A stretch of 64,000 nt of DNA from a virus (Duplodnaviria; Heunggongvirae; Uroviricota; Caudoviricetes). Where the stretch lies: the IMG/VR virus record IMGVR_UViG_3300024333_000003. One strand, 5' to 3'. This document shows, one piece after another, positions 7,602-53,700 of the stretch. The number at the start of each line of letters is the position of its first letter. The stretch's first letter is position 1. Both the position numbers and the translations under genes were made by a program. The notes beneath the pieces are model-generated. The model ran no database searches, was not told the DNA's origin, and saw only the letters and a program-made list of their open reading frames with translations.

Positions 7602-8221
7602 TTGATGAATGTAAATATAAGTGGTGAATTAACCATAACCGATTACACAGAAGACGAGGCACACCAGATAAAAGCGAGCCTTGTGACCGAAAATCCAACC
7701 TGGGTAACGGCTATGAGTATGAACAAAAGTCTGTGGGGGATCGAACCAAAGCTTCGATTTTACACAGAAGCAAACAATACAATAACCGCCCCCGTTGGTT
7801 TCCTTTCGTCATTGAAGATAATAAATCCTAATTTACAGATTGATGATAATCGCTATTATAGCAAAACTCCTATACAAATAGAATTTACCGGGGAGTTACG
7901 AGATTATCAAAAAACTGCAGTAGATGTATTAAGTAATACAACAAACGGGGTTTTATGCTCTATCACGGCTTCAGGAAAAACCGTTATAGCCTGTGCGTTA
8001 CTTGCAAAACTAAAACAACCTACATTGATACTGGTAGATACTATAGAACTTGCGCATCAATTTATTGCGCGATTAAAACAGTTCACCTCAGTAAAGAATA
8101 TAGGAAAAATCGGCGCGGGCGAAAGAAAAATAAAACCAATAACTGTAGGGCTATTACAAAGCGTAAAAAAAATTGATCAATCAGAATTAAATAAATTCGG
8201 AATGATAATATGCGATGAGGT
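7602..8221 (+). CDS. SF2 DEAD/DEAH-box helicase, exon 1 (ends inside motif II DEV|H)
   Basis: Walker A-like TASGKTVIACAL and motif II ...IICDEV. The ORF as tracked runs on into intron sequence (…LTRSTYYV*). Confidence 0.6.
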
Positions 8222-9227
8222 ATTGACAAGGTCCACATATTACGTATAATAACTTATGAAAAATAAAATTAAGATATTATATAAAAGTGGGTTGTCGGCT
8301 TATCAAATAATGCAAAAACTACACATTGCTTCAAAAGAATTAGTATACAATGTTATACATGAAGAAAAATTAACTAGGGACTACGAAGAATGCAGACACC
8401 CTGGTTTGAATAGTCGTTATTTTAAAAATATAGATACAGAAGAAAAAGCGTATATACTTGGATTAATATTCGCCGACGGTTGTGTTAGAAAAAATCGCCC
8501 AGGCATGACCTTAGCACTACATCCGAATGATCTGTACATGTTGCGACGGATTAAAGATATTTTAGGAACCAAGGCAAAGATTCAAATATCAAAACAACCT
8601 TTAGCGGTGTATTATATAAATAATAAACAAATGAGATTAGACGTCATAGCTAAAGGGTGCTTGCCACAAAAATCTCTACGAGGTGGAAAACCCAAAAATA
8701 TTCCTATAAAATACACACATCATTTTATTAGGGGTATATTTGATGGTGATGGTTCGATATATATAAGAAAAGTTCCTCATCTTAGATACTGTTTTGACAT
8801 ATCTGGCAATATCGATGTTGTTTCTTGGTGCCATAAAAGATTAAAACTTTATACTAAGATAACAAAACACCGCTCAATATTTAGATTAGAGACGACTAAT
8901 TTAATTGAAGTTGTTAGAATATTTAATTATTTATATAAAGACAGTACAATTTTTCTAAAGAGAAAAAAAGCATTATTTGAAAAAGCTTGTGCCGCACTTG
9001 ATCGTAAGATCAAAGGTGTAAATCAAGGAAAAACGGTAAAAACCCGTGATGGGCAATACCGTGCTAAACGCAAGGATAGCAAACAGGCCCTGCGCAGTGT
9101 AGAGCATAGGAATTGAATAAATATAATATTCCCAAGAGTCCTTGACATCCTTATAGGATGAAAATATATGCCGAGCTACAAAGTAATTTGTAGAAATTGA
9201 GATAACAACCTCAATGATAACAAAATG
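8222..9227 (+). mobile_element. putative self-splicing (group I-type) intron carrying a LAGLIDADG homing endonuclease
   Basis: Joining gt(8220-8221)+a(9228) restores codon GTA, giving ...ICDEV|HIVPAKTYAEVISKIPAKYKYGLSATPER (motifs II and III). 5' exon ends in U, intron ends in G (9227). An in-frame TGA sits immediately before exon 2. Confidence 0.55.
8256..9116 (+). CDS. LAGLIDADG homing endonuclease (intron-encoded)
   Basis: Two LAGLIDADG motifs: ILGLIFADGCV and IRGIFDGDGSI. Confidence 0.8.
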   Translation: MKNKIKILYKSGLSAYQIMQKLHIASKELVYNVIHEEKLTRDYEECRHPGLNSRYFKNIDTEEKAYILGLIFADGCVRKNRPGMTLALHPNDLYMLRRIKDILGTKAKIQISKQPLAVYYINNKQMRLDVIAKGCLPQKSLRGGKPKNIPIKYTHHFIRGIFDGDGSIYIRKVPHLRYCFDISGNIDVVSWCHKRLKLYTKITKHRSIFRLETTNLIEVVRIFNYLYKDSTIFLKRKKALFEKACAALDRKIKGVNQGKTVKTRDGQYRAKRKDSKQALRSVEHRN

Positions 9228-9924
9228 ACACATCGTACCAGCAAAAACATACGCTGAAGTTATTTCAAAGATACCAGCAAAATATAAATATGGATTATCA
9301 GCCACACCAGAACGAGCTGATGGTCTTACTAAAGTAATATTCTGGTTAACCGGCCCATTGGTACATCAGGTTCCAGATGCCGCTGTTGCAGATAGAATTG
9401 TAAAACCTGTATATGAGTATATAAAAACTTCATATACGTATCCATTATTTGATACGTCAGAATATGGTATCATGATAACGGATATGGGTACTAATGACAT
9501 AAGAAATAAATTAATAGTTGACACCGTAAATAAATATAAAACACAACAATGTGTTCTATTGTGTCATAGACAAGAACATGCTCAGAGACTGGGTGCGTTA
9601 CTACCGGACTCCGTAGTTTTATTATCCAGTGTAAAGAAAAAAGATCGCGCCGCTATTATGCAGCAACTTGAAAGCGGTAAAAAGCGTATTGTTGTTACTA
9701 CCTGGCAATTGTTTCATAAAGGCATCGATCTGAAGGAGCTTGAGATCTTATTTATATGCGCACCAACACGAAGTAAAGTGTGGTTAAAACAAAGCGCCGG
9801 CAGACTAATGCGAGTTTCAAATAAGATAAAAAAGAATCCAGTCATTATTGATTTTGCGGATGTAAATATAGATTTACTAAAATTCCAATGGTATGCAAGA
9901 AAGAGAGTATTTACACAACTATGA
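9228..9924 (+). CDS. SF2 helicase, exon 2 (motif III LSATPER plus helicase C-terminal domain)
   Basis: Frame open from 9229 with no stops. Contains GLSATPER and C-terminal helicase motifs (VVTTWQLFHKGIDL, QSAGRLMR). Confidence 0.6.
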
Positions 9925-10116: not shown

Positions 10117-10560
10117 ATGGTTGTGTCGATAAATAAAGCAGATAACGAGGCACAATTGCGGATATTACGAACACCAGCTACTCGTGGTGAAGTGGGCCCA
10201 GCGGCCTTGTTGGCAGTAGATTTAATAGACACCGCTAAGAACTATGAAATATGTATGGGGCTGGCAAGTAATCAAATCTGGACAAAAGAAAATGAGCCCA
10301 TACCGCATGTATTTGTAGTAAATATTTCTGATAATTGGAAAGTATTTATAAATGCAACGGCAAAAAGATCGGGTAAATACTTCTCGTTTGAAGAAGGATG
10401 TATGTCAAAACCCGGGTATAAGAAAAGATGTATTCGTCGAGAAATCGTTACCGTATCATATATGGATGAGGAAGGTACTCCACACGTTGATAAATTTGTC
10501 GGTATGCCGGCAATTATTATACAACATGAGTTGGATCATATGACCGGAAAATTAATTTAA
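10117..10560 (+). CDS. def: peptide deformylase
   Basis: GLASNQIW (GxGxAAxQ-like), EGCMS (EGCLS) and QHELDH (HExxH) motifs. Confidence 0.8.
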   Translation: MVVSINKADNEAQLRILRTPATRGEVGPAALLAVDLIDTAKNYEICMGLASNQIWTKENEPIPHVFVVNISDNWKVFINATAKRSGKYFSFEEGCMSKPGYKKRCIRREIVTVSYMDEEGTPHVDKFVGMPAIIIQHELDHMTGKLI

Positions 10561-11780: not shown

Positions 11781-12848
11781 ATGGATAACAACTTAATCTT
11801 TGCTATTGAAAAACTAGGGGCCACGATCTACTTATTTGGTGAATGTGTTTGGGCAACAGCATTAAAAATAAAAGTGCAGTATTATAAGTTAGCTATAATT
11901 GGAGTAACCCGCGAACAGGTAATTCCATTGTTAGATAACTATACATTGCACAGAACAAAACCAACACTGCAGATAAGTGACGGTGACACAACATATGAAT
12001 TGTATTTTTTGAATAGTATAGATAGTGTACCATTTGATCCTATATCGATAAACAATGCTATTCTCAGTCTGGATGGCAAGGTATTTCGCGCCGATGATTT
12101 AAAGAATAAACTCATTCGTGCCAATACCTCCACATTTCTCGATTACCCCGAAGAGTTATTACGGATATGTCGCATTGCTGCGCAAACCTCTTTTGCCGTA
12201 GATGTCCCAACGTGGGTAACAATGTACGAACATTCACGATTGATCAAGAATGTAGTAAAGAGCAACCCAGCATATATTGGAAAACAATTGCAACAAATAA
12301 TTATGTCAAAAAATCCGGGGCATGGTTTTCGTTTGATGTTAGAGACCAACGTACTACAATATATTTTTCCAGAGTTAGCACGTTGTAACAATATTCGTCA
12401 AACACGTCGGGGCGAAGGCATCAATGTATTTGAACACATATTGTTGGCTATAAATGCGGCAGCACTTGAAGAAGAAATCAGATGGACTATGTTATTTCAT
12501 GATATGGCAAAACCAACTACTATGGATATTACTTCCGATGGTAAAATGCATTTTTTCAAACACGAATTTGTAGGCGCCGAGCTCGCTGTAACATACATGA
12601 CAAAATATAAATTACCGCCGTCTCTAATACAAACTGTAAAGATATTAATAGAGAATCATATGTTTGACGCGGACCCGAAGTTAACCGTAAAGGGCGTGCG
12701 TCGTCTAATTAAAAGAGTCGGCAAAGAAAACATATATCAACTTATAAAAGTGCGAGAAGCGGATAGACGTGGTACCATGGTTCCACCGTCAAATGATAAG
12801 ATAGAATTGTTAAAAACCAAAATCGAAAAAGAATTATCAAATGTTTAA
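11781..12848 (+). CDS. CCA-adding-enzyme-like protein with degenerate nucleotidyltransferase head and HD domain
   Basis: FLDYPEELLRICRIAAQTSF resembles the EDPLR(I/M)LRA(I/A)RF motif. HD motif MLFHDMAKP. The GGxVRD...DxD head motif is replaced by GECVWATAL. Confidence 0.5.
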   Translation: MDNNLIFAIEKLGATIYLFGECVWATALKIKVQYYKLAIIGVTREQVIPLLDNYTLHRTKPTLQISDGDTTYELYFLNSIDSVPFDPISINNAILSLDGKVFRADDLKNKLIRANTSTFLDYPEELLRICRIAAQTSFAVDVPTWVTMYEHSRLIKNVVKSNPAYIGKQLQQIIMSKNPGHGFRLMLETNVLQYIFPELARCNNIRQTRRGEGINVFEHILLAINAAALEEEIRWTMLFHDMAKPTTMDITSDGKMHFFKHEFVGAELAVTYMTKYKLPPSLIQTVKILIENHMFDADPKLTVKGVRRLIKRVGKENIYQLIKVREADRRGTMVPPSNDKIELLKTKIEKELSNV

Positions 12849-14003: not shown

Positions 14004-14753
14004 ATGAAAATATTACCTGTGGGTTCCTCGAGTTCCGGGAACTGCACATTAATTTATAACGATAATACACGCATCTTAATCGATTGCGGTATATCGGCAA
14101 AAAGGGTTTTTGAGAAAACAGGGCACAAGGAATTCAGCGCCCTGTTTATTTCTCACGAACATAGCGATCATATTGTTGGCGCAGGCCCTGTTGGGCGTAA
14201 AACCAAAGTTCCTATATATATTCATGAAGCTGTTTTCAAAGCAAAAGAAACAGATTTAAATGATTGTGAAATCAAATATATAAATGAGACATCTGTACTG
14301 CAAATTAAATCTTTGATAGTTAAACCTTTTTCAACAAAACACGACGCAAAGTTTGCACTGGGTTTTATAATTGAAGAGCCCGCTACAAATACGTTTCTCT
14401 GCTATTTAACCGATACTGGCAGCATCAGCAAAACTATGCGAGAACGTACAAAACATTGTAACGCCTTTTTCATCGAATGCGATTATGACGATGAATTATT
14501 GGCAACTTACGACGGATACGACCAATTATTAAAGGATCGTATTAGCTCCAACTTTGGTCACCTTAGTACATCACAGGCTTTAGAATTTTTATCTGAGTTT
14601 GATTTGACTAAGACAAAGGGAATAGTTATTGGTCATATAAGTCCAAGGACTAATTCGCCCGAAAAAGTTAAGGAGCATTTTATGAAGAAATTTGCAACAC
14701 TTGAAAATAAATTTCATATTGCTCCATTTGATGCCCCCTTAGAATTGACATGA
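14004..14753 (+). CDS. metallo-beta-lactamase-fold hydrolase
   Basis: HEHSDH (HxHxDH) motif. Confidence 0.6.
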   Translation: MKILPVGSSSSGNCTLIYNDNTRILIDCGISAKRVFEKTGHKEFSALFISHEHSDHIVGAGPVGRKTKVPIYIHEAVFKAKETDLNDCEIKYINETSVLQIKSLIVKPFSTKHDAKFALGFIIEEPATNTFLCYLTDTGSISKTMRERTKHCNAFFIECDYDDELLATYDGYDQLLKDRISSNFGHLSTSQALEFLSEFDLTKTKGIVIGHISPRTNSPEKVKEHFMKKFATLENKFHIAPFDAPLELT

Positions 14754-25318: not shown

Positions 25319-25985
25319 ATGAGTAACATTTTATTGGAATTACAAGCTGGCGAGGGTGGAGCGGATGCAAAACTCCTCGTCGAGGATCAATTAAGTATTT
25401 ATTTAAAAGTCGCGTATAAACACGGACTTTGAGGCAATTCCAATATATGTTAGTGATGGGTTTGCTTCAGTTCAGGTTATCGGACAAAGAGCAAAGGAAT
25501 TATTTGAAAACGAGGGTGGTGCGCACCAATGGCACAGAGTTCCTCCTACAGAAAACCGAGGACGAACACATACCTCTGTTGTAACAGTTGCAGTGTTGGA
25601 TCTTATAGAACTTCCCGAGGTCAGTATAAATTTTAATGACGTTGAAGTTACAACCACTAAAGGAAGCGGTCCTGGAGGACAGAATCGTAATAAAGTTGAA
25701 ACAGTTGTTGTATTAAAACATAAATCAGGGTTAACTGTTCGTTGCGGTTCCGAAAGATCCCAGTACCAAAACAAACAACTTGCTTTTGAAATATTATATT
25801 CTAAGTTACAACGTATCGCTAAATATAATCATCAAAAACAAGCGGCCCAAAATAAACGATTGCAGATGGGGTCGGGACATCGAGCAGAAAAAATTCGTAC
25901 TTATATGGTAAAACATAATTTATGGATTGACCATAGAACAAACGAGCGACGCGATCTGAAAGCGTGGATAAAGGGTAAATGGTAA
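25319..25985 (+). CDS. class I peptide chain release factor-like protein (RF/PrfH-like, lacks domain 1); needs programmed +1 frameshift at CUU UGA G (25427-25433)
   Basis: Frame 0 (25319-25432) gives MSNILLELQAGEGGADAKLLVEDQLSIYLKVAYKHGL* (RF domain-2 start). The +1 frame continues ...GGAHQWHRVPPTENRGRTHTS...SGPGGQNRNKVETVV... with GGQ, through to 25985. Confidence 0.7.
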
Positions 25986-27801: not shown

Positions 27802-27876
27802 CGGAATATGGGCCAATTGGTAGGCCACCAGTTTCGGGAACTGGACATCGTGTGGGTTCAAGCCCCACTATTCCGA
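27802..27876 (+). tRNA. tRNA-Pro (CGG)
   Basis: Anticodon arm CCAGU-UUCGGGA-ACUGG, T-loop UUCAAGC. Confidence 0.7.
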
Positions 27877-28294
27877 CAAATGCCAAAACAATACAAGATA
27901 TTGACAAGCCGAGGTATACATTTATCGTTTAGAAAAGGCATACTTGCGGGAAATAGGAAATTAAAAATTTACGGAACATTAGATTGTTATAGCGGCAAAC
28001 GTATGAAAAAAAAGAATCGAGTATTTTTTCTTACAGAACTAGATGCATTACAATGTAGTTATCGCCCCTGTAAAATTTGTATGTATAAATGAATTATTAT
28101 AAACAAGTAAAAATACAATATGATGATGGTGCATTTGAAATATGTTGGATACCTGAAGAATTTGCACACAAGCATCGCCGAATTATAGTAGATGATAAAT
28201 ATGCTAGAGTATTAATAATCTATATGGACATTCGTTTGACTGAAGATCTTATTGAAATAAATCAAAAATTTCCGTTACGGAAAGCAACCGATAT

Positions 28295-28903
28295 ATGAAA
28301 CAATATCCAGAAATTCCTAAAGATGTGCCATCTTTTAATGCACACGTGTTCGATAAAATAGATGGTAGTAACTTACGTTTTGAATACAGCAAAAAACGTG
28401 GTTGGTTTAAATTCGGTACGCGCACAAGATTATTTGACCAATCAGATGACGTATTTGGATCAGCAGTTCCTTTATTTCACGAAACGTTGTTATTCCCGCT
28501 TACCCAAATTATGATTGATAACCGATTTGAACATGCGGTAGTGTTTGCAGAATTTGCTGGGAAAAGAAGTTTTGCTGGACAACATGAAAAAGATGATGTG
28601 AAGACACTGACGGTGTTTGATGTGGCCTTAGATAAAAAAGGATTCGTATCTCCTAAGATGTTCATAAAATTATTTGACGGTAAAGTACTGATACCAAAAT
28701 ATCTTGGATATTATCGCTGGAATAAAGAATTTACCACTAAGATCTATTATAATGAAATAGAAGGAATCACTTTTGAAGGAGTCGTCGGCAAAGATGGGGA
28801 GGGGACGCACTACAATATGGCAAAAGCTAAGACATTGCAGTGGTTAAATAAAGTACATGCTTTATATTCAGATAATCTAGCAGATAAGATAATAAATAGT
28901 TAA
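28295..28903 (+). CDS. RNA-ligase-like nucleotidyltransferase (KxDGxN motif I)
   Basis: DKIDGSN (motif I), EGVVGK (motif IV), KAK (motif V). Confidence 0.55.
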   Translation: MKQYPEIPKDVPSFNAHVFDKIDGSNLRFEYSKKRGWFKFGTRTRLFDQSDDVFGSAVPLFHETLLFPLTQIMIDNRFEHAVVFAEFAGKRSFAGQHEKDDVKTLTVFDVALDKKGFVSPKMFIKLFDGKVLIPKYLGYYRWNKEFTTKIYYNEIEGITFEGVVGKDGEGTHYNMAKAKTLQWLNKVHALYSDNLADKIINS

Positions 28904-29463
28904 TGGAACAACTAATCTGCGGTAAAAACCATAAGAAGATCGGGGTAACTCCTTCGATCGTACTAATTAATCCTAAATATCCAAGAAACGTTGGCGCAAT
29001 AATACGTGCTGCATCTTGTTTTGGTATAGCCCAGGTTTGGTACACCGGCAATCGTGTATCAATGACACCAACAAAAGATTATCGTTTACCAAGAGAAGAA
29101 CGGATGAAGGGTTATAAAGAAGTTACACTCACACAATTTGATTATCCGTTTGATATGTTTGAAAAAGCAATTCCTATTGCAATTGAAGTGCGAGAAAACT
29201 CTGAAAACTTATTAGACTTTGAACATCCATATAATGCAGTGTATGTTTTTGGTCCAGAAGATGGTGGTATTGAACGAGTACATATGCAACACTGCCATCG
29301 AATTGTCACTATACCCACGAAACATTGCACAAACTTGGCAGCGGCTGTTTATCTTACTTTATATGATAGATATGCCAAACGAGTACGTGCAGGAAAAGAT
29401 CAAATATTCAATATAGGAAAAAATGAACAACGAGGTTATGAAGAAGGGGCTGAATTTGGATGA
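28903..29463 (+). CDS. SpoU/TrmH-family RNA 2'-O-methyltransferase
   Basis: NVGAIIRAASCFG and YVFGPEDGGI SPOUT motifs. Confidence 0.7.
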   Translation: MEQLICGKNHKKIGVTPSIVLINPKYPRNVGAIIRAASCFGIAQVWYTGNRVSMTPTKDYRLPREERMKGYKEVTLTQFDYPFDMFEKAIPIAIEVRENSENLLDFEHPYNAVYVFGPEDGGIERVHMQHCHRIVTIPTKHCTNLAAAVYLTLYDRYAKRVRAGKDQIFNIGKNEQRGYEEGAEFG

Positions 29464-29945
29464 TACCAAAAGAAATTGAATATAAATTTTTGTTCTTTGA
29501 TGAGAATGTTGTGCTTCCACAGCTGGCTCAAGCTAGTAAATCAATAAAATTAATGCAGGGTTATACAATAGATGGGATTAGGTTTACTCAACGAGTACAT
29601 GAAGATAATACAAAAGATTATAAAATAAATTATAAATTAGGAATGGGTGTAGTTCGGGACGAAGCACAATGTCAAATAGATGAAAATGTGTTTATTGCAA
29701 TTTGGCCCTTAACAATTGGTCGACGTGTTTACAAAACACGTTATCACTTTCCACTGGAATCTGGTCTTATATTAGAATTAGATGTATATCAACATTCGAG
29801 GAAATGGCCATTGATCACTGGAGAAATAGAGTTTGCTACGGAAGAGGAAGCAGATAATTACTCAGACACTGAATTGGGGCGCTTCGGCAGTTTTTTATAT
29901 GTAACTGGCGACTCTGAGTATCTGAATATAAACTTAGCCTGTTAA
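29460..29945 (+). CDS. CYTH-domain (triphosphate tunnel) protein
   Basis: N-terminal EIEYKF (EIERKF-type) signature. Confidence 0.45.
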   Translation: MIPKEIEYKFLFFDENVVLPQLAQASKSIKLMQGYTIDGIRFTQRVHEDNTKDYKINYKLGMGVVRDEAQCQIDENVFIAIWPLTIGRRVYKTRYHFPLESGLILELDVYQHSRKWPLITGEIEFATEEEADNYSDTELGRFGSFLYVTGDSEYLNINLAC

Positions 29946-29953
29946 TAAATTAT

Positions 29954-30027
29954 GCTCTCGTACATCAATTGGACAGAGCTGCGCCTTCTAAGCGTGAGCG
30001 TTGCGAGTTCGAGTCTCGCCGAGAGTA
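29954..30027 (+). tRNA. tRNA-Arg (UCU), irregular D-arm
   Basis: Anticodon arm UGCGC-CUUCUAA-GCGUG, T-arm GCGAG-UUCGAGU-CUCGC. Confidence 0.55.
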
Positions 30028-30070
30028 CAAGATGCCCCTTAGCGTATTTTCATTCATAAGGAGAAAATAT

Positions 30071-30523
30071 ATGCTACCTATTTTAAAAAGAGACTTTGCC
30101 TCTGATATAGAATATTGGCTTAATGATATTAGAAAAGCCTTTGAGGAGGCAGCAAATTTGGAACTATGTTTTGAACCTATTGGTCGAGCATTTCCAAAAG
30201 TAAACATTTCCGAAACAGACAAGGAATTTGTCATAGAAGCGGCTTTGCCTGGTTATGGAAAAGATCAAATTAAATTAGAAGTTACAAATGATAAAGGAAG
30301 AAAGTTTCTTACTGTAAAAGGTGAGAAATCTGGGAAGGCTTCTAAGAAAGATACACGTTATCTTGCTCAAGAAGTACATTTTTCCTCGTTTCATCGTTCC
30401 TGGGCGCTTCCAGCCGATGTAGATGTAGATGCCATCAAAACTAATATGGATAGTGGAGTTCTTACTATCGAACTTCCAAAAACAAGTCCAAGCATCGACA
30501 AAAAAGAAATAACTATTAGCTAA
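30071..30523 (+). CDS. Hsp20/alpha-crystallin small heat-shock protein
   Basis: Alpha-crystallin domain FVIEAALPGYGKDQIKLEV...GVLTIELPK. Start ATG 30071 preceded by AAGGAG; the track ORF start overlaps the tRNA. Confidence 0.7.
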   Translation: MLPILKRDFASDIEYWLNDIRKAFEEAANLELCFEPIGRAFPKVNISETDKEFVIEAALPGYGKDQIKLEVTNDKGRKFLTVKGEKSGKASKKDTRYLAQEVHFSSFHRSWALPADVDVDAIKTNMDSGVLTIELPKTSPSIDKKEITIS

Positions 30524-30546
30524 CTACGCTCAAGGGGCATCACTTT

Positions 30547-31158
30547 ATGACAATACATATAATTGGTGATATACATGGATTATACACAGAAATATATTTG
30601 CCTATGATCAAGAAGATTGATGGACCTTCAATTCAATTAGGCGATATGGCCCATGGATTCCCAAATACATTTTTACCTGAGTTGCCGTCTCAACATAAAT
30701 TTATCCGCGGTAATCATGATAATCCAGAACTATGTAAAACACATCCTAATTATCTTGGAGAATTTGGATATATCGAAGAATGGGATATATTCTATCTAGG
30801 GGGTGGTTGGTCGACAGATTGGGACAGTAGAATTCCTGGTGTATCTTGGTGGTATGATGAGGAACTGTCAATGCGACAATGTTATGAAGCCTTAAAATTA
30901 TACGAGGTGTCAAAACCACGAATAGTGCTTTCACATGATTGTCCGGAAATAGCAAAGATAAGTATGCTGATATATTTATACGGAAAACATGCGTATAATC
31001 AACCTTCCAGAACAAATCAATTATTGCAAGCCATGTTTGAACTTCATAATCCATCTTATTGGTGTTTCGGTCATTTCCATCATACACGAAAATTTATAAT
31101 TCACAAAACTGCCTTTCAGTGTTTAGGAAAGGCACAATACACAACAATAGAGGTTTAA
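30547..31158 (+). CDS. calcineurin-like metallophosphoesterase
   Basis: GDIHG, GD...GNHD motifs. Confidence 0.65.
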   Translation: MTIHIIGDIHGLYTEIYLPMIKKIDGPSIQLGDMAHGFPNTFLPELPSQHKFIRGNHDNPELCKTHPNYLGEFGYIEEWDIFYLGGGWSTDWDSRIPGVSWWYDEELSMRQCYEALKLYEVSKPRIVLSHDCPEIAKISMLIYLYGKHAYNQPSRTNQLLQAMFELHNPSYWCFGHFHHTRKFIIHKTAFQCLGKAQYTTIEV

Positions 31159-31160
31159 CA

Positions 31161-31877
31161 ATGCACGAACTAGTAAAAAAGGCACGAAGCTTTGCAGAGA
31201 AACGACATGCAGGACATAAATATGGTACATTGCCAGTGGATATTATAGTACATCTTGATAACGTTTATCATGTTTTAATGGAATTTGGCGAAACCGACCC
31301 ATCGATGTTAGCGGCAGGATTCTTACATGATATATTAGAAGACACAAAAACTTCGCAAGAGGAACTGCAAGAAGAATTTGGTATGATAACTACTGCATTG
31401 GTTTTAGCGGTTACTGATGGAGAAGGTAAGAATCGTAAGGAACGCAAAGAAGCAATGTACAATAAAACGGCGGGTCATTTGCGATTCACACGTTTAAAAT
31501 TAGCTGACCGTATAGCAAACATGCGGTATTCCAAGGCTGAAAAGTCTCCGCAGCTGACAATGTATATGAAGGAGTATCCAGAATTTAAAGCTCGCTTATT
31601 CTTTGCGAACGATGGTAACGAAAAAATGTGGGAAACATTAGACGCTTTAATGAAAAGTGTGATTCCACGGACATTCAAATTGAGTCGTGAAAAAGATGTT
31701 AGCGGTGTTTCTGGAAAAGGTATAGTAGGAGAAGGAGTTATATTTACAAACGGTAAATGCGTAGTAACATGGTATGGAAAAATAGCATCAGTCACTGTTT
31801 ATAACACATTCGAGGATTGTGAGCAAATACATGGACACGAAGGAGCAACAAAATTTGTATTCGATAACAAGTTTTAA
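31161..31877 (+). CDS. Rel/SpoT-type HD hydrolase (small alarmone hydrolase-like)
   Basis: RHAGHKYGTLP...HLDNV...AAGFLHDILEDT matches the (p)ppGpp-hydrolase HD domain. Confidence 0.6.
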   Translation: MHELVKKARSFAEKRHAGHKYGTLPVDIIVHLDNVYHVLMEFGETDPSMLAAGFLHDILEDTKTSQEELQEEFGMITTALVLAVTDGEGKNRKERKEAMYNKTAGHLRFTRLKLADRIANMRYSKAEKSPQLTMYMKEYPEFKARLFFANDGNEKMWETLDALMKSVIPRTFKLSREKDVSGVSGKGIVGEGVIFTNGKCVVTWYGKIASVTVYNTFEDCEQIHGHEGATKFVFDNKF

Positions 31878-32307
31878 GGACGAGTGGGAATTCTTATCAA
31901 ATTTCTATCCAGCCCCCATCACATATGATGGCGCTGAATATCCTACGGTTGAACATGCTTTTCAGGCGGCCAAAACATTGAATCCTGCGCAGCGCGAAGA
32001 AATTCGAGTTGCACCGACTCCGGGTAAAGCAAAACAGTTAGGACGAATAGTTGATCGTCGTCCTGATTGGGAACTTATAAAACAAACTGTTATGGCCCAG
32101 TTGTTGGCGGCCAAGTTCACTAATTACCCCGAATTACGAAAAAAGTTAATAGCGACGGGTAATCTTTTTCTTGAAGAAGGTAATACTTGGCATGATAATT
32201 ACTGGGGAGCATGTACGTGTGATTACTGCAAAACTCAATACAAGTATAATATTCTGGGTACGTTATTAATGACAACTAGAGTATTTTTGCAATTGGATTT
32301 GGCATGA
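31819..32307 (+). CDS. NADAR (YbiA-like) domain protein
   Basis: FLSNFYPAPI...YPTVEHAFQAAK hallmark. Confidence 0.7.
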   Translation: MSKYMDTKEQQNLYSITSFKDEWEFLSNFYPAPITYDGAEYPTVEHAFQAAKTLNPAQREEIRVAPTPGKAKQLGRIVDRRPDWELIKQTVMAQLLAAKFTNYPELRKKLIATGNLFLEEGNTWHDNYWGACTCDYCKTQYKYNILGTLLMTTRVFLQLDLA

Positions 32308-36637: not shown

Positions 36638-38035
36638 ATGAACTACGGGTTATACACAGATATGTATCAACTTGTTATGGCACAAGGATATTTCCAGATG
36701 AGCCGCCATAATGACCGAGCCACGTATGATTATTTTTATCGACGTAACCCATACGGCGGCGGTTATGCATTATTTGCCGGATTAAGTGAGTTGTTAGATA
36801 TCTTAAAGAATTGGAAATTTACCGAAGAAGATACAACGTATTTATTTCATCAAGGAATTTTTCACGCAGGCTTTTTGAGTTATTTACGTGACTTTCAATT
36901 CAAAGGCGATATCTATTCTGTGCGTGAGGGCGAAGTTGTTTTTCCAAATGAACCTATACTGCGAATTGAAGGTGGTTGGCTAGAGTGTCAATTATTAGAA
37001 ACTCTGTTGCTCAACATTATCAACTTCAGTACATTGATCGCAACTAAAGCAGCACGTATAAAACAAGTTGTAAACGAACGACCTATAATTGATATGGGAT
37101 TACGACGTGCACAGGGGTTGGGAGGTATTTTGGCGAGTAAAGCCGCTATTATTGGTGGTGCAACTTCAACTTCTAATGTTTATGCCGCAAAGAAATACGA
37201 TCTCTTAGCGGTAGGTACAATGGCTCATGCCTGGATACTTGGTTTTGAAAACGAGTTAACTGCATTTCGTGCGTTTGCTAAAGAATATCCGCACAACACA
37301 GTGTTGCTAGTTGATACTTATGATACATTAAAAAGTGGTGTGCCGAATGCAATAATCGTAGCTAAAGAACTTGAAGCCAACGGATGTAAATTACATGGTA
37401 TCCGATTAGATAGCGGCGACTTTGCGTACCTAAGCAAAAAAGCAAGAAATCTTCTTGATGAGGCCAATTTGTCTTATGTAAAAATAGTTGCATCTAATCA
37501 ATTAGATGAATATGTAATTCGTAGTCTAGAAGAACAGGACGCTCCTATTGATATTTATGGTGTAGGCACAAATTTAATTATCGGTGCTGGCGCTGGAGCT
37601 CATGATGGTGTATATAAACTATCATCGATTCAAGGACAGCCGAAAATGAAATTTTCAGATAATCCTGAAAAAGCTACATTACCCGGACCAAAAGATCTGT
37701 ATCGTTATTATAATAACGACGGCACTTTTTATGGCGACGGTATTACTTGCGCAGGAATGCCTCCACCGAAGAAGTTGTATGATCCTGTTTATCCAGATAG
37801 ATTATCAGATGTTGGAGATCTAAAAAACGAAGCGCTTTTAATAAAGTGCGTGGAAAATGGAAAGGTTGTAATAACTAATCCTATCGTACGTACATCAAGA
37901 CTTTATGCGGAAAGTCGTCTGCAGAGCTTAGGAAAAGAATTCACTAGATTTGAAAACCCACATATCTATAAAGTAGGTGTAAGTGATATATTACTTAAGC
38001 ATAAAACAGATATGATTGCCGCACTTAGAAAATAA
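36638..38035 (+). CDS. nicotinate/nicotinamide phosphoribosyltransferase (PncB/NadV family)
   Basis: 465 aa; N-terminus TDMYQLVMAQGYF and overall length match the NAPRTase/NAMPT family. Confidence 0.6.
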   Translation: MNYGLYTDMYQLVMAQGYFQMSRHNDRATYDYFYRRNPYGGGYALFAGLSELLDILKNWKFTEEDTTYLFHQGIFHAGFLSYLRDFQFKGDIYSVREGEVVFPNEPILRIEGGWLECQLLETLLLNIINFSTLIATKAARIKQVVNERPIIDMGLRRAQGLGGILASKAAIIGGATSTSNVYAAKKYDLLAVGTMAHAWILGFENELTAFRAFAKEYPHNTVLLVDTYDTLKSGVPNAIIVAKELEANGCKLHGIRLDSGDFAYLSKKARNLLDEANLSYVKIVASNQLDEYVIRSLEEQDAPIDIYGVGTNLIIGAGAGAHDGVYKLSSIQGQPKMKFSDNPEKATLPGPKDLYRYYNNDGTFYGDGITCAGMPPPKKLYDPVYPDRLSDVGDLKNEALLIKCVENGKVVITNPIVRTSRLYAESRLQSLGKEFTRFENPHIYKVGVSDILLKHKTDMIAALRK

Positions 38036-38684: not shown

Positions 38685-38712
38685 CATGTAAAACTAATTA
38701 GGACATGATTTT

Positions 38713-39813
38713 ATGGGACGAAAAACTATTAGCCGACTGCAAGAAAAAATGCGTAGGCTAGCTTCATTCGATAACACGCTAAAAACATATAAATCGGTCA
38801 AACCAGCAAAAAGTAAAAAACTCACTGGTGAAGAAGTATATAAATTGATGCCAGCTTTGACAAATTATTCGAAATTTTTCATAAATAATCTTTCTTTATG
38901 GAAATGTCCATCATATAATACAGATCGGCAGAAAACCAGTCTCATACGATTTTTGCTTTTTAAATATCCGGTACATGATATGTTTATCAATGCTTTCTTA
39001 ACTACCCCAAAAGAAATAAATACGTTCGTTCAAGAACTATTCTATTGGGCGATAGATCTCGGCCAAGGGCGCTCTATAAAAGATCGAGTGAAGGGAATAT
39101 TTACGGCAAAAGAGCTGCATTGGTTTTTAAACGGGCCTAAAAATAACGTGTTCTACAACAGTTGGTATGCAAAATGTAGGGCGCGTCATTGGCCTACTAA
39201 TCTAATTAATTCGTTTGCCAACCGGTTAGGTCCATTTCCTATACATGATTGGAAAGAAGTTGCTTATTGGGACAAAATAATACAATTCTTTACAAACTAT
39301 TTGGAAGAGTTGGACTCGGATATGTTATCTGAACTGTTGGATTTTATAAAATATGCCCATGACTACGAAAATTTTCAAATTGAGGGACGTACATTATCGT
39401 CCCTTATACGATTTTCTAATCGTTGGCATATGGGTCGTAGATTAACCGGCAAGTCAATTATTGAAGGCACATGGATGCCAATGAATATCCCGACATGGGA
39501 ATATTATGATAAGGTCACGAAGATACATTGGAAGATTCATCAGTTATTGACCGGAAAAGATCTTGCATATGAAAGTAAGATACAACACCATTGTGTATGG
39601 TCGTATTCTCAGGCATGCGTGCGTGGACAAAGCAGAATATTCACTTTGCATAGTATCGATGGGATAGGCGACGAACGAAAGCATCTTACCATAGAAGTGT
39701 CTCCACAAGATAAAATGGTCAGACAGGTCCGTGGAAAATTAAACCGTAGGGCGACCAACGGAGAAAGAAATATTTTGTACAAATGGATTGATCAGTATAA
39801 ACTAATTTATTAA
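38713..39813 (+). CDS. hypothetical protein (366 aa)
   Basis: ORF with RBS-like GGA upstream; no motif recognised. Confidence 0.4.
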   Translation: MGRKTISRLQEKMRRLASFDNTLKTYKSVKPAKSKKLTGEEVYKLMPALTNYSKFFINNLSLWKCPSYNTDRQKTSLIRFLLFKYPVHDMFINAFLTTPKEINTFVQELFYWAIDLGQGRSIKDRVKGIFTAKELHWFLNGPKNNVFYNSWYAKCRARHWPTNLINSFANRLGPFPIHDWKEVAYWDKIIQFFTNYLEELDSDMLSELLDFIKYAHDYENFQIEGRTLSSLIRFSNRWHMGRRLTGKSIIEGTWMPMNIPTWEYYDKVTKIHWKIHQLLTGKDLAYESKIQHHCVWSYSQACVRGQSRIFTLHSIDGIGDERKHLTIEVSPQDKMVRQVRGKLNRRATNGERNILYKWIDQYKLIY

Positions 39814-44711: not shown

Positions 44712-45926
44712 TTGTACCAAAAAAGCAAAACAGGAAAAATTAAAGTATTAGAATTCTGGACTGTAAAAGAAAAATTCTATACTCGTTGGGGGCAATTAAA
44801 CGGTAAACAGCAAGAAACTGTGAAGGTATGTGTGGGAATGAATATCGGTAAAGCTAATGAAACTACACCTGCAGAGCAGGCATTGGCAGAGATGGAAGCC
44901 AAGATCGTAATTAAGAAAAAAGAAGGTTACGATACAAAGATGCCTTCAGTTACCTCATCAATAGTGCAAACTGTTATTGATCTGGATAATATACCAGAAG
45001 CATTTTGTCCTAATAAACCTATATCTAAAACACCACAATCAATTATTGATGGTAAAAATACGTATGGACAAAGAAAATTCGATGGGCATTGCTTATTCTT
45101 GGTTAAAGGCAAAACTACCGAAAAAGTATTTTCACGTCGTATGGAAGATCGTACAGACGTATTAATACAGTTACCGCCTATAAAAAAATTATTGGCTATA
45201 CTACCAAGTGAAACGTTTTTATTAACCGAATTTATATATTATAACAACACAACAAAACGTGAATCGCCTAGACATGTAGCGCAGGTTGTTCGTAAAGATG
45301 ATGCTGCGGAGGCTATATCGCGTTATAACGAGTTATCAAAAGATGGACAATTCAACTGTATCCCCTTCGATGTCCTATTCTTCAAAGGAGATTTTGTCGG
45401 AAATAGAGAATATACTAAACGATTCGAATTACTCAAATCTATCAATATCAACGTGCCCCCCATATACACAGATTGGAAGGAGCTACTTCAATTTGCCGAA
45501 GAAGAAAATTGGGAGGGTTTTGTCCTTCGTGTGCCAGGTGAGAAATCATATATCTCTTATACAATGGATGGAGAAGCACATCGAGCGGGAAGTTATAAAT
45601 ACAAATTTCTCAAAACTGATGACTTTTTTGTCACAGAATGGCTTAAGGGAAAATCCGGAAAACACGCCAATTTTTATGCGAAGTTTGCTGTGGCACAATA
45701 CGACTCCAAAGGCACCATTATCGATCGTGGATATGTCGGCCCTGGTAAACTAACTCACGATGAACTAGCACAACTTACAAAGGATCTAAATTCTGGTAAA
45801 GTAAAAAAGAACTTTGTAATCGAAGCTGAATATCAGGATATTCAAGATTCTGGAAAATTACAGTTTGGAATAATTCAGCGACTACGACCAGATAAAATAC
45901 ACACAGAATGCGTGGTTGAAGAATGA
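44712..45926 (+). CDS. ATP-dependent nucleotidyltransferase ligase (DNA or RNA ligase)
   Basis: KFDGHC (motif I KxDG), EGFVLRV (motif IV), YKYKFLK (motif V). Confidence 0.6.
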   Translation: MYQKSKTGKIKVLEFWTVKEKFYTRWGQLNGKQQETVKVCVGMNIGKANETTPAEQALAEMEAKIVIKKKEGYDTKMPSVTSSIVQTVIDLDNIPEAFCPNKPISKTPQSIIDGKNTYGQRKFDGHCLFLVKGKTTEKVFSRRMEDRTDVLIQLPPIKKLLAILPSETFLLTEFIYYNNTTKRESPRHVAQVVRKDDAAEAISRYNELSKDGQFNCIPFDVLFFKGDFVGNREYTKRFELLKSININVPPIYTDWKELLQFAEEENWEGFVLRVPGEKSYISYTMDGEAHRAGSYKYKFLKTDDFFVTEWLKGKSGKHANFYAKFAVAQYDSKGTIIDRGYVGPGKLTHDELAQLTKDLNSGKVKKNFVIEAEYQDIQDSGKLQFGIIQRLRPDKIHTECVVEE

Positions 45927-47641: not shown

Positions 47642-48355
47642 ATGGCACAACAAATGATCAGAATATTTCAAGTTGGTGGTAGTGTTAGAGATTTAATATT
47701 ACGCGTTAAGTCAAAAGATATTGATTATGCAGTAGTAGCAGTTTCTTGGGAAGAAATGAGAAATTATATTCTTGCCAAAGGCAAAATATATCTCGAGACC
47801 CCAGAATACTTCACTATCCGTGCTCATATAGATGGTTTTGGTGATGCTGATTTTGTGTTATGTCGAAAGGATGGTAACTATTCAGACGGTCGTAGACCTG
47901 ATACTGTTGAGTTGGGCACATTGTATGACGATCTAGCCAGACGTGATTTCACAATGAATGCTATTGCGATCGACATGCAAGATCCAAAGCGTCCTTTTAT
48001 TGACCCGCATGGTGGGTTGATTGACATACAAAATAATCTCATTAAATGTGTTGGTAAGCCCGAAGATCGCTTCAATGAAGATGCTTTACGCATGCTACGC
48101 GCGTTAAGATTTGCCGTAACCAAAAAAATGCAGATCGACTTATCAGTAGAAGCATGTTTTGGTAATCGTGAGTTATTAAACAAATTGAATAATCGTATTT
48201 CTTGGGAACGTAAAAAAGACGAATTGTTTAAAATGTTCAAAACAAGTACAACACGAACTTTTGAATTGTTTGATCGATACCCATCAATGCGCGACGTATT
48301 ACTTTCTGATGACAAACCTTTGTGGCTTGAACCAACTTTACGAGCACGCCCATGA
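47642..48355 (+). CDS. tRNA nucleotidyltransferase (CCA-adding enzyme head domain)
   Basis: GGSVRD...DID nucleotidyltransferase motif, RRDFTMNA, EDALRMLRALRF. Confidence 0.7.
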   Translation: MAQQMIRIFQVGGSVRDLILRVKSKDIDYAVVAVSWEEMRNYILAKGKIYLETPEYFTIRAHIDGFGDADFVLCRKDGNYSDGRRPDTVELGTLYDDLARRDFTMNAIAIDMQDPKRPFIDPHGGLIDIQNNLIKCVGKPEDRFNEDALRMLRALRFAVTKKMQIDLSVEACFGNRELLNKLNNRISWERKKDELFKMFKTSTTRTFELFDRYPSMRDVLLSDDKPLWLEPTLRARP

Positions 48356-48918
48356 AACTAGGAATATTTGGTGGCAGTTTTGATCCGCCGCACGCTGGAC
48401 ATTTATGGTTGTGTAGAAGTGCTCAGGAATTATATCATTTGGATAGTATAGCTATGGTGCCTAATGCGCTTTCTCCATTAAAGGATCATAAACATACAGA
48501 AGCTCATCATATAGTCGCTATGACACGATTAACGGCGTTCGAATGCGAAAGTACTTATTGTGATACAACAGAGATTTGCCGTGATAAGGTATCATATACT
48601 ATAGACACTGTAAAATTATTTAAAGATCATTATCCAGAAGATGATTTATATTTGCTGTTAGGTGGTGATTCATTATTAGATTTTTACCGTTGGAAGGACC
48701 CTAATGAACTTGTAGAGATTATCGGGCACGAACATATTTTAGTGGCTGAACGAAGTACTGCACCTCTGATGGCACATAAGTTTCGGTCGCTACCTATGCC
48801 CTACATACAAGTGAGTTCAACGGATATTCGTAATCGAATAAAAAATCATTTGACAATAAAAGGATTAGTAGTTGATTCGGTGCGTGAATATATAATCGAA
48901 CGTAAGCTGTATCTATAA
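48352..48918 (+). CDS. nicotinate/nicotinamide mononucleotide adenylyltransferase (NMNAT/NadD-like)
   Basis: GGSFDPPHAGH (T/HxGH) motif. Confidence 0.75.
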   Translation: MKLGIFGGSFDPPHAGHLWLCRSAQELYHLDSIAMVPNALSPLKDHKHTEAHHIVAMTRLTAFECESTYCDTTEICRDKVSYTIDTVKLFKDHYPEDDLYLLLGGDSLLDFYRWKDPNELVEIIGHEHILVAERSTAPLMAHKFRSLPMPYIQVSSTDIRNRIKNHLTIKGLVVDSVREYIIERKLYL

Positions 48919-52949: not shown

Positions 52950-53700
52950 TGCCCATTAACCTTATTGGTTAGCTATGAACAATCATAGTACTGTTCGCCA
53001 GAACTGCATTCCAGAATGATTTAGGTTAATTGCGAAAGCCCCTGGAACAGGGGAGTCCTACGCATACTTACCCGTCGTAGGTGAGCCTGTCTAATTATGG
53101 GTTAGACCCAGGGTCGATCCAAAAGGTAAGCTCGATCGAAATTAACTATTGTCTGCGTGGCCGAGAACGAAATAAGCACTAGTCTCTAAAACTAGTTACA
53201 CGGGGTCGTTCCCCGTCGCAGACACTTATTCCTCTGTGGTGAAATGAAAAGAGATGTATATTTGTTACGTATTAATATACATTACTAAGTCACTAGATTG
53301 AATTAGTAGGTGACAGCATCGAGTTACCAGTATAGACTGTTCTTTATGGTCAAGTTCAGAGCAAGTGTATTGGAAGAATAACTAGGATGAAGCGATTAAA
53401 CCAATTGTCATGCGACGAACGTTTAGTTGCGTAGCGGCTGAATATTCAATTGAAAATTAGAATGGGATCTTTACTACTCCCTGTCGAACGCTTACAAACG
53501 GAACTGACTGTCAGTAGACTAAAAGTAATGCTGCAGGTTTGAGTCCTGCCAGAGGGATAAATTTTTATCCGGACGGCGTATTATTCTCTCGACGCCTAAT
53601 AAATATGGGGAGATTATCAGTCCTGTCATAAACAATTCCGCTCAATGAGCACCGGAGCCATTTGATAGGACTTTTGCATTATATATGGCTCCGCCACGAT
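52950..53700 (+). ncRNA. group I intron-like ribozyme core in an ORF-free region
   Basis: P4-P6-like UUAAUUGCGAAAGCCCCUGGAACAGGGGAGUCCUACGCAUAC (~53024-53065). R-like CAGUAGACUAAAAG (~53515-53528) and S-like AUUAUCAGUCC (~53609-53619) can form P7. Confidence 0.45.

Follow-up and report, generated by a model that had tools for sequence, protein, structure and literature searches.

A catalytic-domain-only, Rnl2-like ligase family of huge phages and its loose, class-level links to RNA-healing and RNA-methylating enzymes

This report concerns lig202, a 202-residue covalent nucleotidyltransferase of the RNA-ligase type, and its gene neighbourhood in a 64-kb stretch of DNA (64,000 nucleotides, here called the window) of the Caudoviricetes virus record IMGVR_UViG_3300024333_000003. 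According to its predicted structure, lig202 consists of an Rnl2-like catalytic domain only; the active site is intact, and its most likely function is the ATP-dependent sealing of RNA. It belongs to a large, uncharacterised family. New here are this catalytic-domain-only family and its loose links, at the level of enzyme classes, to healing and methylating enzymes. The chances that lig202 is part of a toolkit against RNA damage that is modular and of no fixed composition across jumbo phages are, in our estimate, about even. An earlier note on the same DNA had proposed a cassette of four genes for a ligase, a SpoU-type 2'-O-methyltransferase, a CYTH protein and a phosphoesterase that heals, seals and methylates RNA; this proposal is weighed below.

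The match of lig202 to the Pfam family RNA_ligase (PF09414) is just over threshold (E = 3e-7, 31.2 bits compared with a cut-off of 27), and its PHROG match is phrog_548, "RNA ligase". Motif I (KIDGSN) comprises residues 21–26, of which K21, D23 and G24 do not vary among 61 members of the family. Other invariant residues are E86 (motif III), D109 (motif IIIa), E161 and G162 (motif IV) and K177 and K179 (motif V). Furthermore, an S-x-x-G-x-H motif is specific to the family. There are at least 572 homologues. Lengths were checked on the best 120 of the 572 and are nearly all about 200 residues (range 182–219). The family is concentrated in very large phages, and protein searches of GenBank phages found it in huge phages only. 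How such a widespread, domain-only ligase chooses its substrate, and whether it depends on a partner protein, are the questions it raises.

No match to solved structures was found for the sequence of lig202 or for the profile of its family, and the class assignment therefore rests on the predicted fold. The AlphaFold model has a pLDDT of 93.7. The structures that Foldseek places on top are T4 Rnl2, trypanosome REL1 (TbREL1), Naegleria Rnl5 (NgrRnl) and archaeal Rnl3. With T4 Rnl2, the kinetoplastid editing ligases and the Naegleria and Deinococcus Rnl5 enzymes, lig202 shares the nucleotidyltransferase fold (E = 1.7e-7 to 1e-5, TM ~0.6) and motifs I, III, IIIa, IV and V including the lysine nucleophile, at ~16–18% identity. 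Ranks 1–24 among the PDB folds are all RNA ligases and DNA ligases appear from rank 25 onwards. Among viral models, one 204-residue family member is followed by many "RNA ligase 2" proteins. The fold lists are thus headed by RNA ligases; DNA ligases come next, together with a few proteins that are unrelated or unnamed, and there is no capping enzyme within the top 50 of either library. The description of the KIDGSN protein as RNA-ligase-like in the earlier note is borne out by PF09414, phrog_548 and the fold. A grouping with DNA ligases, which the note had named as a possible outcome, was not seen, since Rnl2, REL1, Rnl5 and Rnl3 all rank above them.

In the model, the catalytic domain takes up all 202 residues. 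There is no counterpart to the C-domain that Rnl2 has, to the OB domain at the N terminus of Rnl5 or to the dimerisation domain of Rnl3, and lig202 is in this respect an architectural variant among RNA ligases. To our knowledge, every characterised RNA ligase family possesses an extra accessory domain that holds the RNA. On its own, the N-domain of Rnl2 adenylylates itself and seals pre-adenylylated nicks but falls short of the complete reaction, and in trypanosomes a partner protein lends the ligases an OB fold in trans. By analogy with this partial activity and this borrowed domain, a partner protein that supplies RNA binding to lig202 is plausible.

The window has a G+C content of 35–40% and its plus strand carries almost all transcription. 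ARAGORN locates 37 tRNA genes between 23.5 and 61 kb, and the protein matches of the region are to huge phages of 385–642 kb. The region is therefore a tRNA and translation-support island of a huge phage. An identical sequence is present on a metagenomic contig of 214.5 kb (ena:ERZ27250193:k141_197835); a near-identity DNA search found no close relatives among GenBank phages. The following features surround lig202.

25593–25985, plus strand: RF-1 (GGQ) domain protein, 130 aa, 2.3 kb upstream of lig202
27802–27877, plus strand: tRNA-Pro(CGG) (ARAGORN), upstream edge of the protein-gene block
27808–28092: open reading frame (ORF) of 94 aa, overlaps tRNA-Pro(CGG)
28089–28298, plus strand: 69-aa ORF with no assigned function, start/stop overlap (ATGA) with the lig202 gene
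28295–28903, plus strand: lig202, RNA-ligase-type covalent nucleotidyltransferase, 202 aa (PF09414, phrog_548)
28903–29463, plus strand: SpoU/TrmH-class SPOUT RNA 2'-O-methyltransferase, 186 aa (PF00588, E = 5.5e-19)
29460–29945, plus strand: CYTH protein (triphosphate-tunnel metalloenzyme) of the NE1496-like subfamily, 161 aa (homologue profile)
29954–30028, plus strand: tRNA-Arg(UCU) (ARAGORN)
30071–30523, plus strand: Hsp20 small heat-shock protein (PF00011, E = 5.7e-20)
30547–31158, plus strand: calcineurin-like metallophosphoesterase, 203 aa (PF00149, E = 1e-8; phrog_1649, E = 1.4e-28)
31161–31877, plus strand: SpoT-like HD_4 hydrolase fused to an Acb5 (anti-CBASS) domain
31831–32307, plus strand: NADAR domain protein (PF08719, E = 1.6e-24)

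The ORFs and the tRNA positions from ARAGORN agree with the earlier note in place and type, all on the plus strand; this includes the tRNA-Arg, Hsp20 and the calcineurin-like phosphoesterase, as well as the release-factor-like gene with its RF-1 domain. The ligase, SpoU, CYTH and phosphoesterase genes lie on one strand within 2.9 kb. In the series formed by the 69-aa ORF, lig202, SpoU and CYTH, the junctions are ATGA, TAATG and ATGA with overlaps of 1–4 bases, and this overlapping block is flanked by tRNA-Pro and tRNA-Arg. The tRNA-Arg and Hsp20 genes sit between the first three enzymes and the phosphoesterase gene. Scans for promoters and terminators gave no signal above shuffled expectation. 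The 69-aa ORF has no match in Pfam or PHROG; a homologue exists in a related phage locus (L025), where it does not adjoin a ligase. Hsp20 is present in L025 and missing from another relative (L021), and is probably outside any repair function.

The class-level linkage of lig202 was observed across genomes. An unbiased Pfam census covered the two nearest genes to either side of lig202 at 65 non-redundant phage loci (255 proteins). Metallophos and RNA_ligase head the list with three members each, followed by aminoacyl-tRNA synthetase, RF-1, NUDIX and DnaJ with two each. Within 3 kb of lig202, metallophosphoesterases occur at six of these loci, other RNA ligases at six, SpoU at three and RF-1 at three. 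Partner density is greater here (376 kb searched) than in the ring between 3 and 10 kb (758 kb), where the respective numbers are four, one, two and zero. The six loci with a second, longer RNA ligase within 3 kb are joined by three cellular loci. Examples of such second ligases (loci L001, L002, L022, L131, L132, L136, L153, L213 and L214) are a 237-aa PF09414 protein and a 356-aa protein that resembles T4 Rnl1 by eye, with no confirmation by a model. This suggests a division of labour between lig202 and the second ligases.

SpoU-type methyltransferases from three subfamilies recur upstream of lig202. Among 80 IMG/VR loci with the SpoU family of the window, lig202 lies 0.4–4 kb downstream in eight (five distinct), CYTH is present in two and the phosphoesterase in three. 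The SpoU subfamily of the window occupies this position in L042, L043, L045, L046 and L059. Conversely, a divergent, Pfam-confirmed SpoU is found upstream of lig202 in eight of 74 lig202 loci (five distinct). A second subfamily overlaps lig202 in L146 and precedes it by 0.4 kb in L162 and by 2.3 kb in L165; a third lies 3.5 kb upstream in L226. Further cases of proximity are L205 (0.9 kb), L022 (5.4 kb) and the GenBank phage LR756511 (7.3 kb). The order of the genes varies among these recurrences. At least one tRNA gene is located within 10 kb at 29 of 60 lig202 loci and 34 of 60 SpoU loci, and four or more at 24 and 25 of them, respectively. The eight tight pairs (L042, L043, L045, L046, L059, L146, L162 and L165) have no tRNA within 10 kb. 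Their pairing is therefore not accounted for by an attraction of both genes to tRNA arrays.

The tight pairs have further neighbours. In the clade of L042, L043, L045 and L059, a nucleoside 2-deoxyribosyltransferase-like protein of 169–187 aa (PF15891, e.g. L042:12556–13092) is a further neighbour that recurs. An APS-kinase/AAA_33-like P-loop protein is found in L042 and L046 and a SLOG-family protein in L046, and ORFs of L045 and L059 resemble PRPP synthetase by sequence inspection, with no confirmation by a model. The window has no homologues of any of these four neighbours.

The phosphoesterases beside lig202 come from unrelated families. Unrelated metallophosphoesterases adjoin it in L135, L140 and L159/L168. 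Most informative are L225, L226 and L227, the contexts of closer lig202 homologues (53–55% identity). L225 contains a CCA-adding enzyme, a metallophosphoesterase, lig202, an AAA ATPase and RlaP, a nucleotidyltransferase published as RNA-ligase-associated. L227 combines CYTH, a CCA-adding enzyme, a metallophosphoesterase and lig202, and L226 has SpoU, a PolyA_pol-type protein 49% identical to that of the window, and lig202. The phosphatases of L225 (4121–4861) and L227 (3913–4647), 0.3 and 1.4 kb upstream of lig202, are stand-alone proteins of 244–246 aa that match positions 182–420 of the Pnkp model TIGR04075 (E = 1.5e-54 and 1.3e-72). Only the phosphatase module of Pnkp is matched and no kinase or ligase domain is attached. 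A 186-aa neighbour in L227 was considered as a Macro domain, which Pfam did not confirm.

Truncated class-I release factor homologues of 219–226 aa lie 181 bp downstream of lig202 in L109 (10812–11492) and L178 (10835–11494). They contain the end of the PCRF domain and the RF-1 domain, lack domain 1, score below the PrfH cut-off and are nearer to RF1. As a further ribosome-rescue element of the same islands, tmRNA genes are located within 10 kb of SpoU or lig202 in L039, L048, L062, L064, L089, L114, L116 and L118.

The SpoU protein of the window belongs to a family of at least 2907 homologues (55–78% identity), and many of the best of them are on contigs of 100–550 kb. In GenBank phages, the family was found only in LR756511 (595 kb). 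The three SpoU motifs are kept (N29/R35, G117-E119-G121 and N144-L145) and a family-specific insert, RLPREERMKGY, is invariant. The model (pLDDT 87.6) has the SPOUT fold and is about equidistant from TrmH, AviRb, TrmJ, TrmL and RlmB (Foldseek E = 1e-9 to 1e-7). The three motifs are shared with these enzymes as well. The window protein differs from them in its insert and its minimal size (~190 aa), and it remains under the cut-off of every orthologue: NCBIfam scores are far too low (the best, TrmJ/YjtD, is 49 bits compared with 167) and PDB profile matches are weak and mixed. Judged by these sequence and model comparisons, it is a ribose 2'-O-methyltransferase about as close to tRNA enzymes as to rRNA enzymes. 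The assignment to the SpoU/TrmH 2'-O class in the earlier note thus stands (PF00588 and the fold agree) and a grouping with rRNA methylases was not found; placement in a clade of the TrmH or TrmL type was not achieved.

The CYTH ORF alone has no direct match in Pfam or NCBIfam, and a word-indexed homologue search returned only the ORF itself. The exhaustive HMMER search yielded 1246 homologues, only 75 of them at E = 1e-10 or better. A profile of 60 homologues matches Nitrosomonas NE1496 (2fbl/3typ) over its full length with E ~1e-52, and 41 of the 60 match PF01928. The N-terminal EIEYK corresponds to the ExExK signature, and E5, E7, K9, R41, K59, E68, K92, R94, E106, D108, E122 and E124 are conserved. 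The JGI annotation of the 161-aa ORF is also that of a CYTH domain protein. The earlier note had recognised CYTH from EIEYK, and on the strength of these profiles the assignment is correct. The signature and the tunnel residues are shared with NE1496, which we take to be the NeuTTM inorganic triphosphatase of Nitrosomonas europaea, while the phage subfamily is divergent. A published survey suggested that phage CYTH enzymes degrade NTPs (PMC7824862).

The phosphoesterase of the window does not match any NCBIfam model, including the Pnkp model TIGR04075. Its best PDB match is lambda phosphatase with an E-value of only 0.2, and its homologues are found in rhizobial, roseobacter and cyanobacterial phages of 139–490 kb. 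With the Pnkp-type phosphatase of L227 it has only the N-terminal metal motif in common. By sequence it does not appear to be of the Pnkp type.

The two genes downstream of it, HD_4-Acb5 and NADAR, look like counter-defence genes directed against signalling. Acb5 is an anti-CBASS cGAMP nuclease that releases 2',3'-cyclic nucleotides (bioRxiv 10.1101/2025.07.12.664507), and the HD_4-Acb5 fusion probably serves counter-defence. The NADAR gene adjoins the HD gene in L021, too. HD-Acb5, NADAR and the metallophosphoesterase, which are adjacent in L021, may be a unit that degrades nucleotide signals. Because the downstream genes are of the counter-defence type, the phosphoesterase could just as well belong to this nucleotide-degrading set. 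Six proteins were scanned with the PADLOC defence models and only NADAR was matched; the ligase, SpoU, CYTH and the phosphoesterase were not. A homologue of the anti-Pycsar protein Apyc1 is encoded at 14004–14753.

Gene order is not maintained in the closest relatives. In L021, whose SpoU is 78% identical, the order is SpoU-CYTH-HD/Acb5-NADAR-phosphoesterase. In the next relative, L025 (SpoU 70% identical), it is SpoU-ORF280-Hsp20-CYTH-phosphoesterase. No degraded ligase remnant was detected next to SpoU in either locus. The association of SpoU, CYTH and phosphoesterase is confined to close kin and is therefore explained by descent, and the placement of the ligase in this phage is lineage-specific. 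Six GenBank huge phages that encode lig202 have none of the other cassette genes within 5 kb of it.

With the bacterial Pnkp/Hen1 and Pnkp1-Rnl-Hen1 systems, the genes share a common logic, i.e. a metallophosphoesterase, an ATP-dependent RNA ligase and a ribose 2'-O-methyltransferase. A separate ligase is a feature of the split bacterial system Pnkp1-Rnl-Hen1 (PMC4411300), and lig202 homologues in L225 and L227 adjoin stand-alone Pnkp-type phosphatases. However, a kinase module is missing from the window, the phosphoesterase there shows no match to Pnkp, and there is no Pnkp-type ligase among the top fold matches of lig202, the nearest being Rnl2, Rnl5 and Rnl3. The methyltransferase has the SPOUT fold, whereas Hen1 is composed of a Rossmann fold and, at its N terminus, a ligase-activating domain. 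In contrast to the Pnkp/Hen1 operon, the gene set of the window is not a conserved operon. The statement in the earlier note that the parts are unrelated to Pnkp/Hen1 holds in the window, as no protein scanned against NCBIfam matches the bacterial Pnkp model. Phage XacN1 has a canonical Pnkp/Hen1 pair (ORF197/198; PMC5852040) and also encodes a lig202 homologue that is annotated only as hypothetical. RNA-repair sets of jumbo phages have been surveyed before and include Rnl1, Rnl2, RtcB, kinase-phosphatases, RlaP, CCA enzymes and cREC (PMC7824862; PMC9503650). In the accessible RNA-repair literature, no mention of a linkage between a SPOUT methyltransferase and an RNA ligase was found.

Phage RNA repair directed against host defences that cut tRNA is established for T4 and predicted for jumbo phages. 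In the toolkit reading, lig202 would be co-transcribed with the start/stop-overlapped SpoU and CYTH genes between two tRNA genes. Genome by genome, it would be teamed with differing phosphoesterases, SpoU enzymes, ligases, CCA-adding or RlaP enzymes and RF-like rescue proteins. A tRNA, or possibly an rRNA, would be broken by host nucleases and its 2',3'-phosphate end would be cleared by a phosphoesterase. lig202, probably with RNA-binding help in trans, would join the 3'-OH and the 5'-phosphate. A ribose 2'-O-methyl group placed by SpoU on the same RNA class would then confer resistance to transesterifying nucleases. The absence of a 5' kinase from the window means that healing of a 5'-OH would need a gene elsewhere, or that the breaks carry a 5' phosphate. 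The nucleotides that SPOUT enzymes are known to modify are internal ones of folded RNAs and not 3' ends, on which Hen1 acts, and Rnl2-type ligases require a 2'-OH at the nick. For these reasons, methylation after sealing or an independent protection of tRNA is at least as likely as a Hen1-like modification of the junction, an element of the earlier note that is speculative and has no direct support; the role in RNA repair that it gave to the ligase is plausible. That lig202 seals RNA is well supported, as far as context goes, by the recurrence beside it of non-orthologous members of the same functional classes. End-healing phosphoesterases, 2'-O-methyltransferases, RNA ligases, enzymes of tRNA 3'-end repair and RF-like proteins are the pattern expected of a modular RNA-repair guild.

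Several observations weigh against this toolkit. There is no dominant or constant partner of lig202, as the commonest family has only three members among the 255 census proteins, and any single partner class is present in only ~5–9% of the lig202 loci. These numbers are low and come from loci that lack phylogenetic independence. Accessory genes of jumbo phages cluster anyway, whatever their function. In L021 the ligase and Hsp20 were not found within 8 kb, and L025 has no ligase nearby. At least four contigs hold both SpoU and lig202 at a distance of 31–105 kb. SpoU homologues are about five times as numerous as those of lig202, so SpoU mostly works without it, and neither NCBIfam, PDB profiles nor the fold place SpoU in a substrate-defined group. 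No conservation of the lig202 neighbourhood was found in bacterial and archaeal genomes. A Walker-A scan found no polynucleotide 5' kinase in the window; the motif was present only in an AAA_24 protein, in an ABC-type ATPase and, by chance, in an unrelated ORF (38698–39810). The separation on one contig, the variable neighbourhoods, the differing gene order with absence of the ligase in the two closest relatives and the counter-defence type of the downstream genes are also what would be expected if there were no functional coupling. Independent accessory genes would then be packed in a tRNA and auxiliary island: SpoU would modify phage or host tRNA, lig202 would seal alone, and CYTH, the phosphoesterase, HD-Acb5 and NADAR would act on nucleotides or immune signals. 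Start/stop overlaps are the norm in this dense genome, and the lack of promoter and terminator signals fits this explanation, too. Independence of this kind is opposed by the three SpoU subfamilies and several phosphoesterase families that recur by lig202 in independent lineages, by the greater partner density within 3 kb and by the tight SpoU–lig202 pairs away from tRNA arrays. We regard it as somewhat unlikely but as a serious contender. Should the pairing prove spurious, what is left is an ordinary accessory-gene mosaic.

The remaining alternatives assume tighter or different coupling. In its strict form, the earlier proposal makes the ligase, SpoU, CYTH and the phosphoesterase one Pnkp/Hen1-like pathway in which methylation of the junction blocks re-cleavage. 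It draws on the four genes within 2.9 kb of one strand, the overlaps of the first three, the RNA type of the ligase and the 2'-O-ribose type of the methyltransferase, and also on the Pnkp-type phosphatases and SpoU–lig202 pairs seen elsewhere. However, the four-gene set and its order occur only in this window. CYTH is near lig202 elsewhere only in L184 and L227 and at none of the 65 unbiased loci, the phosphoesterase does not look Pnkp-like by sequence and may belong with the downstream counter-defence genes, and the window lacks a kinase; the internal action of SPOUT enzymes and the 2'-OH requirement of Rnl2-type ligases do not suit the scheme either. With relatives that lack the ligase at this locus and partners that are infrequent, the cassette is not sustained and is decidedly unlikely; what persists of the predicted synteny is the recurrence of the SpoU and phosphoesterase classes near lig202 in independent lineages. 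A two-protein module of lig202 and the SPOUT methyltransferase that seals and immunises, independently of Pnkp/Hen1, is unlikely. SpoU or another small neighbour would bind the RNA in trans, the repaired tRNA would be marked against anticodon nucleases, and the healing enzymes (Pnkp-type or other metallophosphoesterases, possibly CYTH) would be interchangeable. Were the recurrent SPOUT pairing to reflect a genuine pathway, protection of repaired RNA against re-cleavage would have evolved a second time, independently, and a methyltransferase family whose members in huge phages number in the thousands would receive its first function. The target could also be the ribosome, with lig202 resealing cleaved rRNA together with an RF-like rescue protein, as in RtcB2-PrfH, and SpoU acting as an rRNA methyltransferase. 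The RF-1/GGQ gene 2.3 kb upstream in the window, the domain-1-less RF-1-derived proteins next to lig202 in L109 and L178, and a SpoU fold as near to rRNA enzymes (AviRb, RlmB, RlmR) as to tRNA enzymes are in line with this, and a precedent for PrfH with RtcB has been published (PMC9304027). The chemistry of lig202, an ATP-dependent KxDG enzyme, differs from that of RtcB, the RF-like proteins are no orthologues of PrfH, the RF-1 link is restricted to three of the 65 loci, and the linkage to CCA-adding enzymes, RlaP and tRNA arrays favours tRNA; a ribosomal target is thus very unlikely. Finally, the three overlapping genes could form a cap-like set in which CYTH would trim the 5' triphosphate, the KxDG enzyme would put a nucleotide on the 5' end of the RNA and the methyltransferase would supply the 2'-O-methyl group. 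Fungal and several viral capping systems use RNA triphosphatases of the tunnel type, and the three enzyme classes fit the logic of capping. This reading is barely credible and was dismissed, as lig202 has no capping enzyme among its top 50 fold neighbours and no OB domain. In addition, there is no N7 methyltransferase, CYTH is of the NE1496/NeuTTM subfamily (presumably inorganic triphosphatases) and not of the Cet1 type, and the ligase-SpoU-CYTH trio occurs only in this window.

Other RNA-processing genes lie further away in the window.

11781–12848: protein with the PolyA_pol RNA-binding region and an HD domain, 355 aa
42111–42458: cREC_REC (PF20274) protein, 115 aa, 2.3 kb upstream of the gene for a 404-aa ligase
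47642–48355: PolyA_pol head-domain protein, 237 aa

The earlier note had assembled an extensive system against anticodon nucleases from a second ligase of 404 aa (44712–45926), two CCA-enzyme paralogs, Pth2 and the release-factor-like gene. The CCA-related genes and the RF-1 gene are real, and the former correspond to one PolyA_pol head protein and one protein with the PolyA_pol RNA-binding region and HD domain. Pth2 drops out, because no called gene in the window matches PF01981. The 404-aa ligase is ruled out as a second RNA ligase: it matches PF01068 and the NCBIfam models of NHEJ/ATP-dependent DNA ligases, and its PDB matches are archaeal DNA ligases only. A 677-aa ligase with LigD_N, DNA_ligase_A_M and OB domains is encoded just past the 3' end of the window (L228:21485–21944). 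Together, these two give the phage at least two enzymes of the DNA-ligase type besides lig202. cREC is a divergent receiver domain that is predicted to process 2',3'-cyclic-phosphate ends and is linked with RNA ligases (PMC7824862).

Among the tRNA genes of the window, one at 53151–53225 is a suppressor with the anticodon CUA (labelled "Pyl" by ARAGORN). Similar CUA tRNAs are present in L038, L052, L065, L076, L080, L083, L089, L116, L134 and L141, a UUA suppressor tRNA in L047 and a UCA tRNA in L086. This suggests reassignment or read-through of the amber stop codon in part of these huge-phage genomes. The ORFs studied here are not affected, as they align with their homologues over the full length. 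Genes for NAD salvage are interspersed with the tRNA genes, i.e. a nicotinate phosphoribosyltransferase and a cytidylyltransferase-like protein that is probably NMNAT (36638–38035 and 48352–48918), as is a peptide deformylase (10117–10560). A helicase is apparently split (7602–9924), with a DEAD/ResIII N-terminal ORF at 7605–8249 and a Helicase_C ORF at 9358–9924. A 286-aa ORF between the halves (8256–9116) has a faint LAGLIDADG match, which suggests the insertion of a homing-endonuclease gene or an intein.

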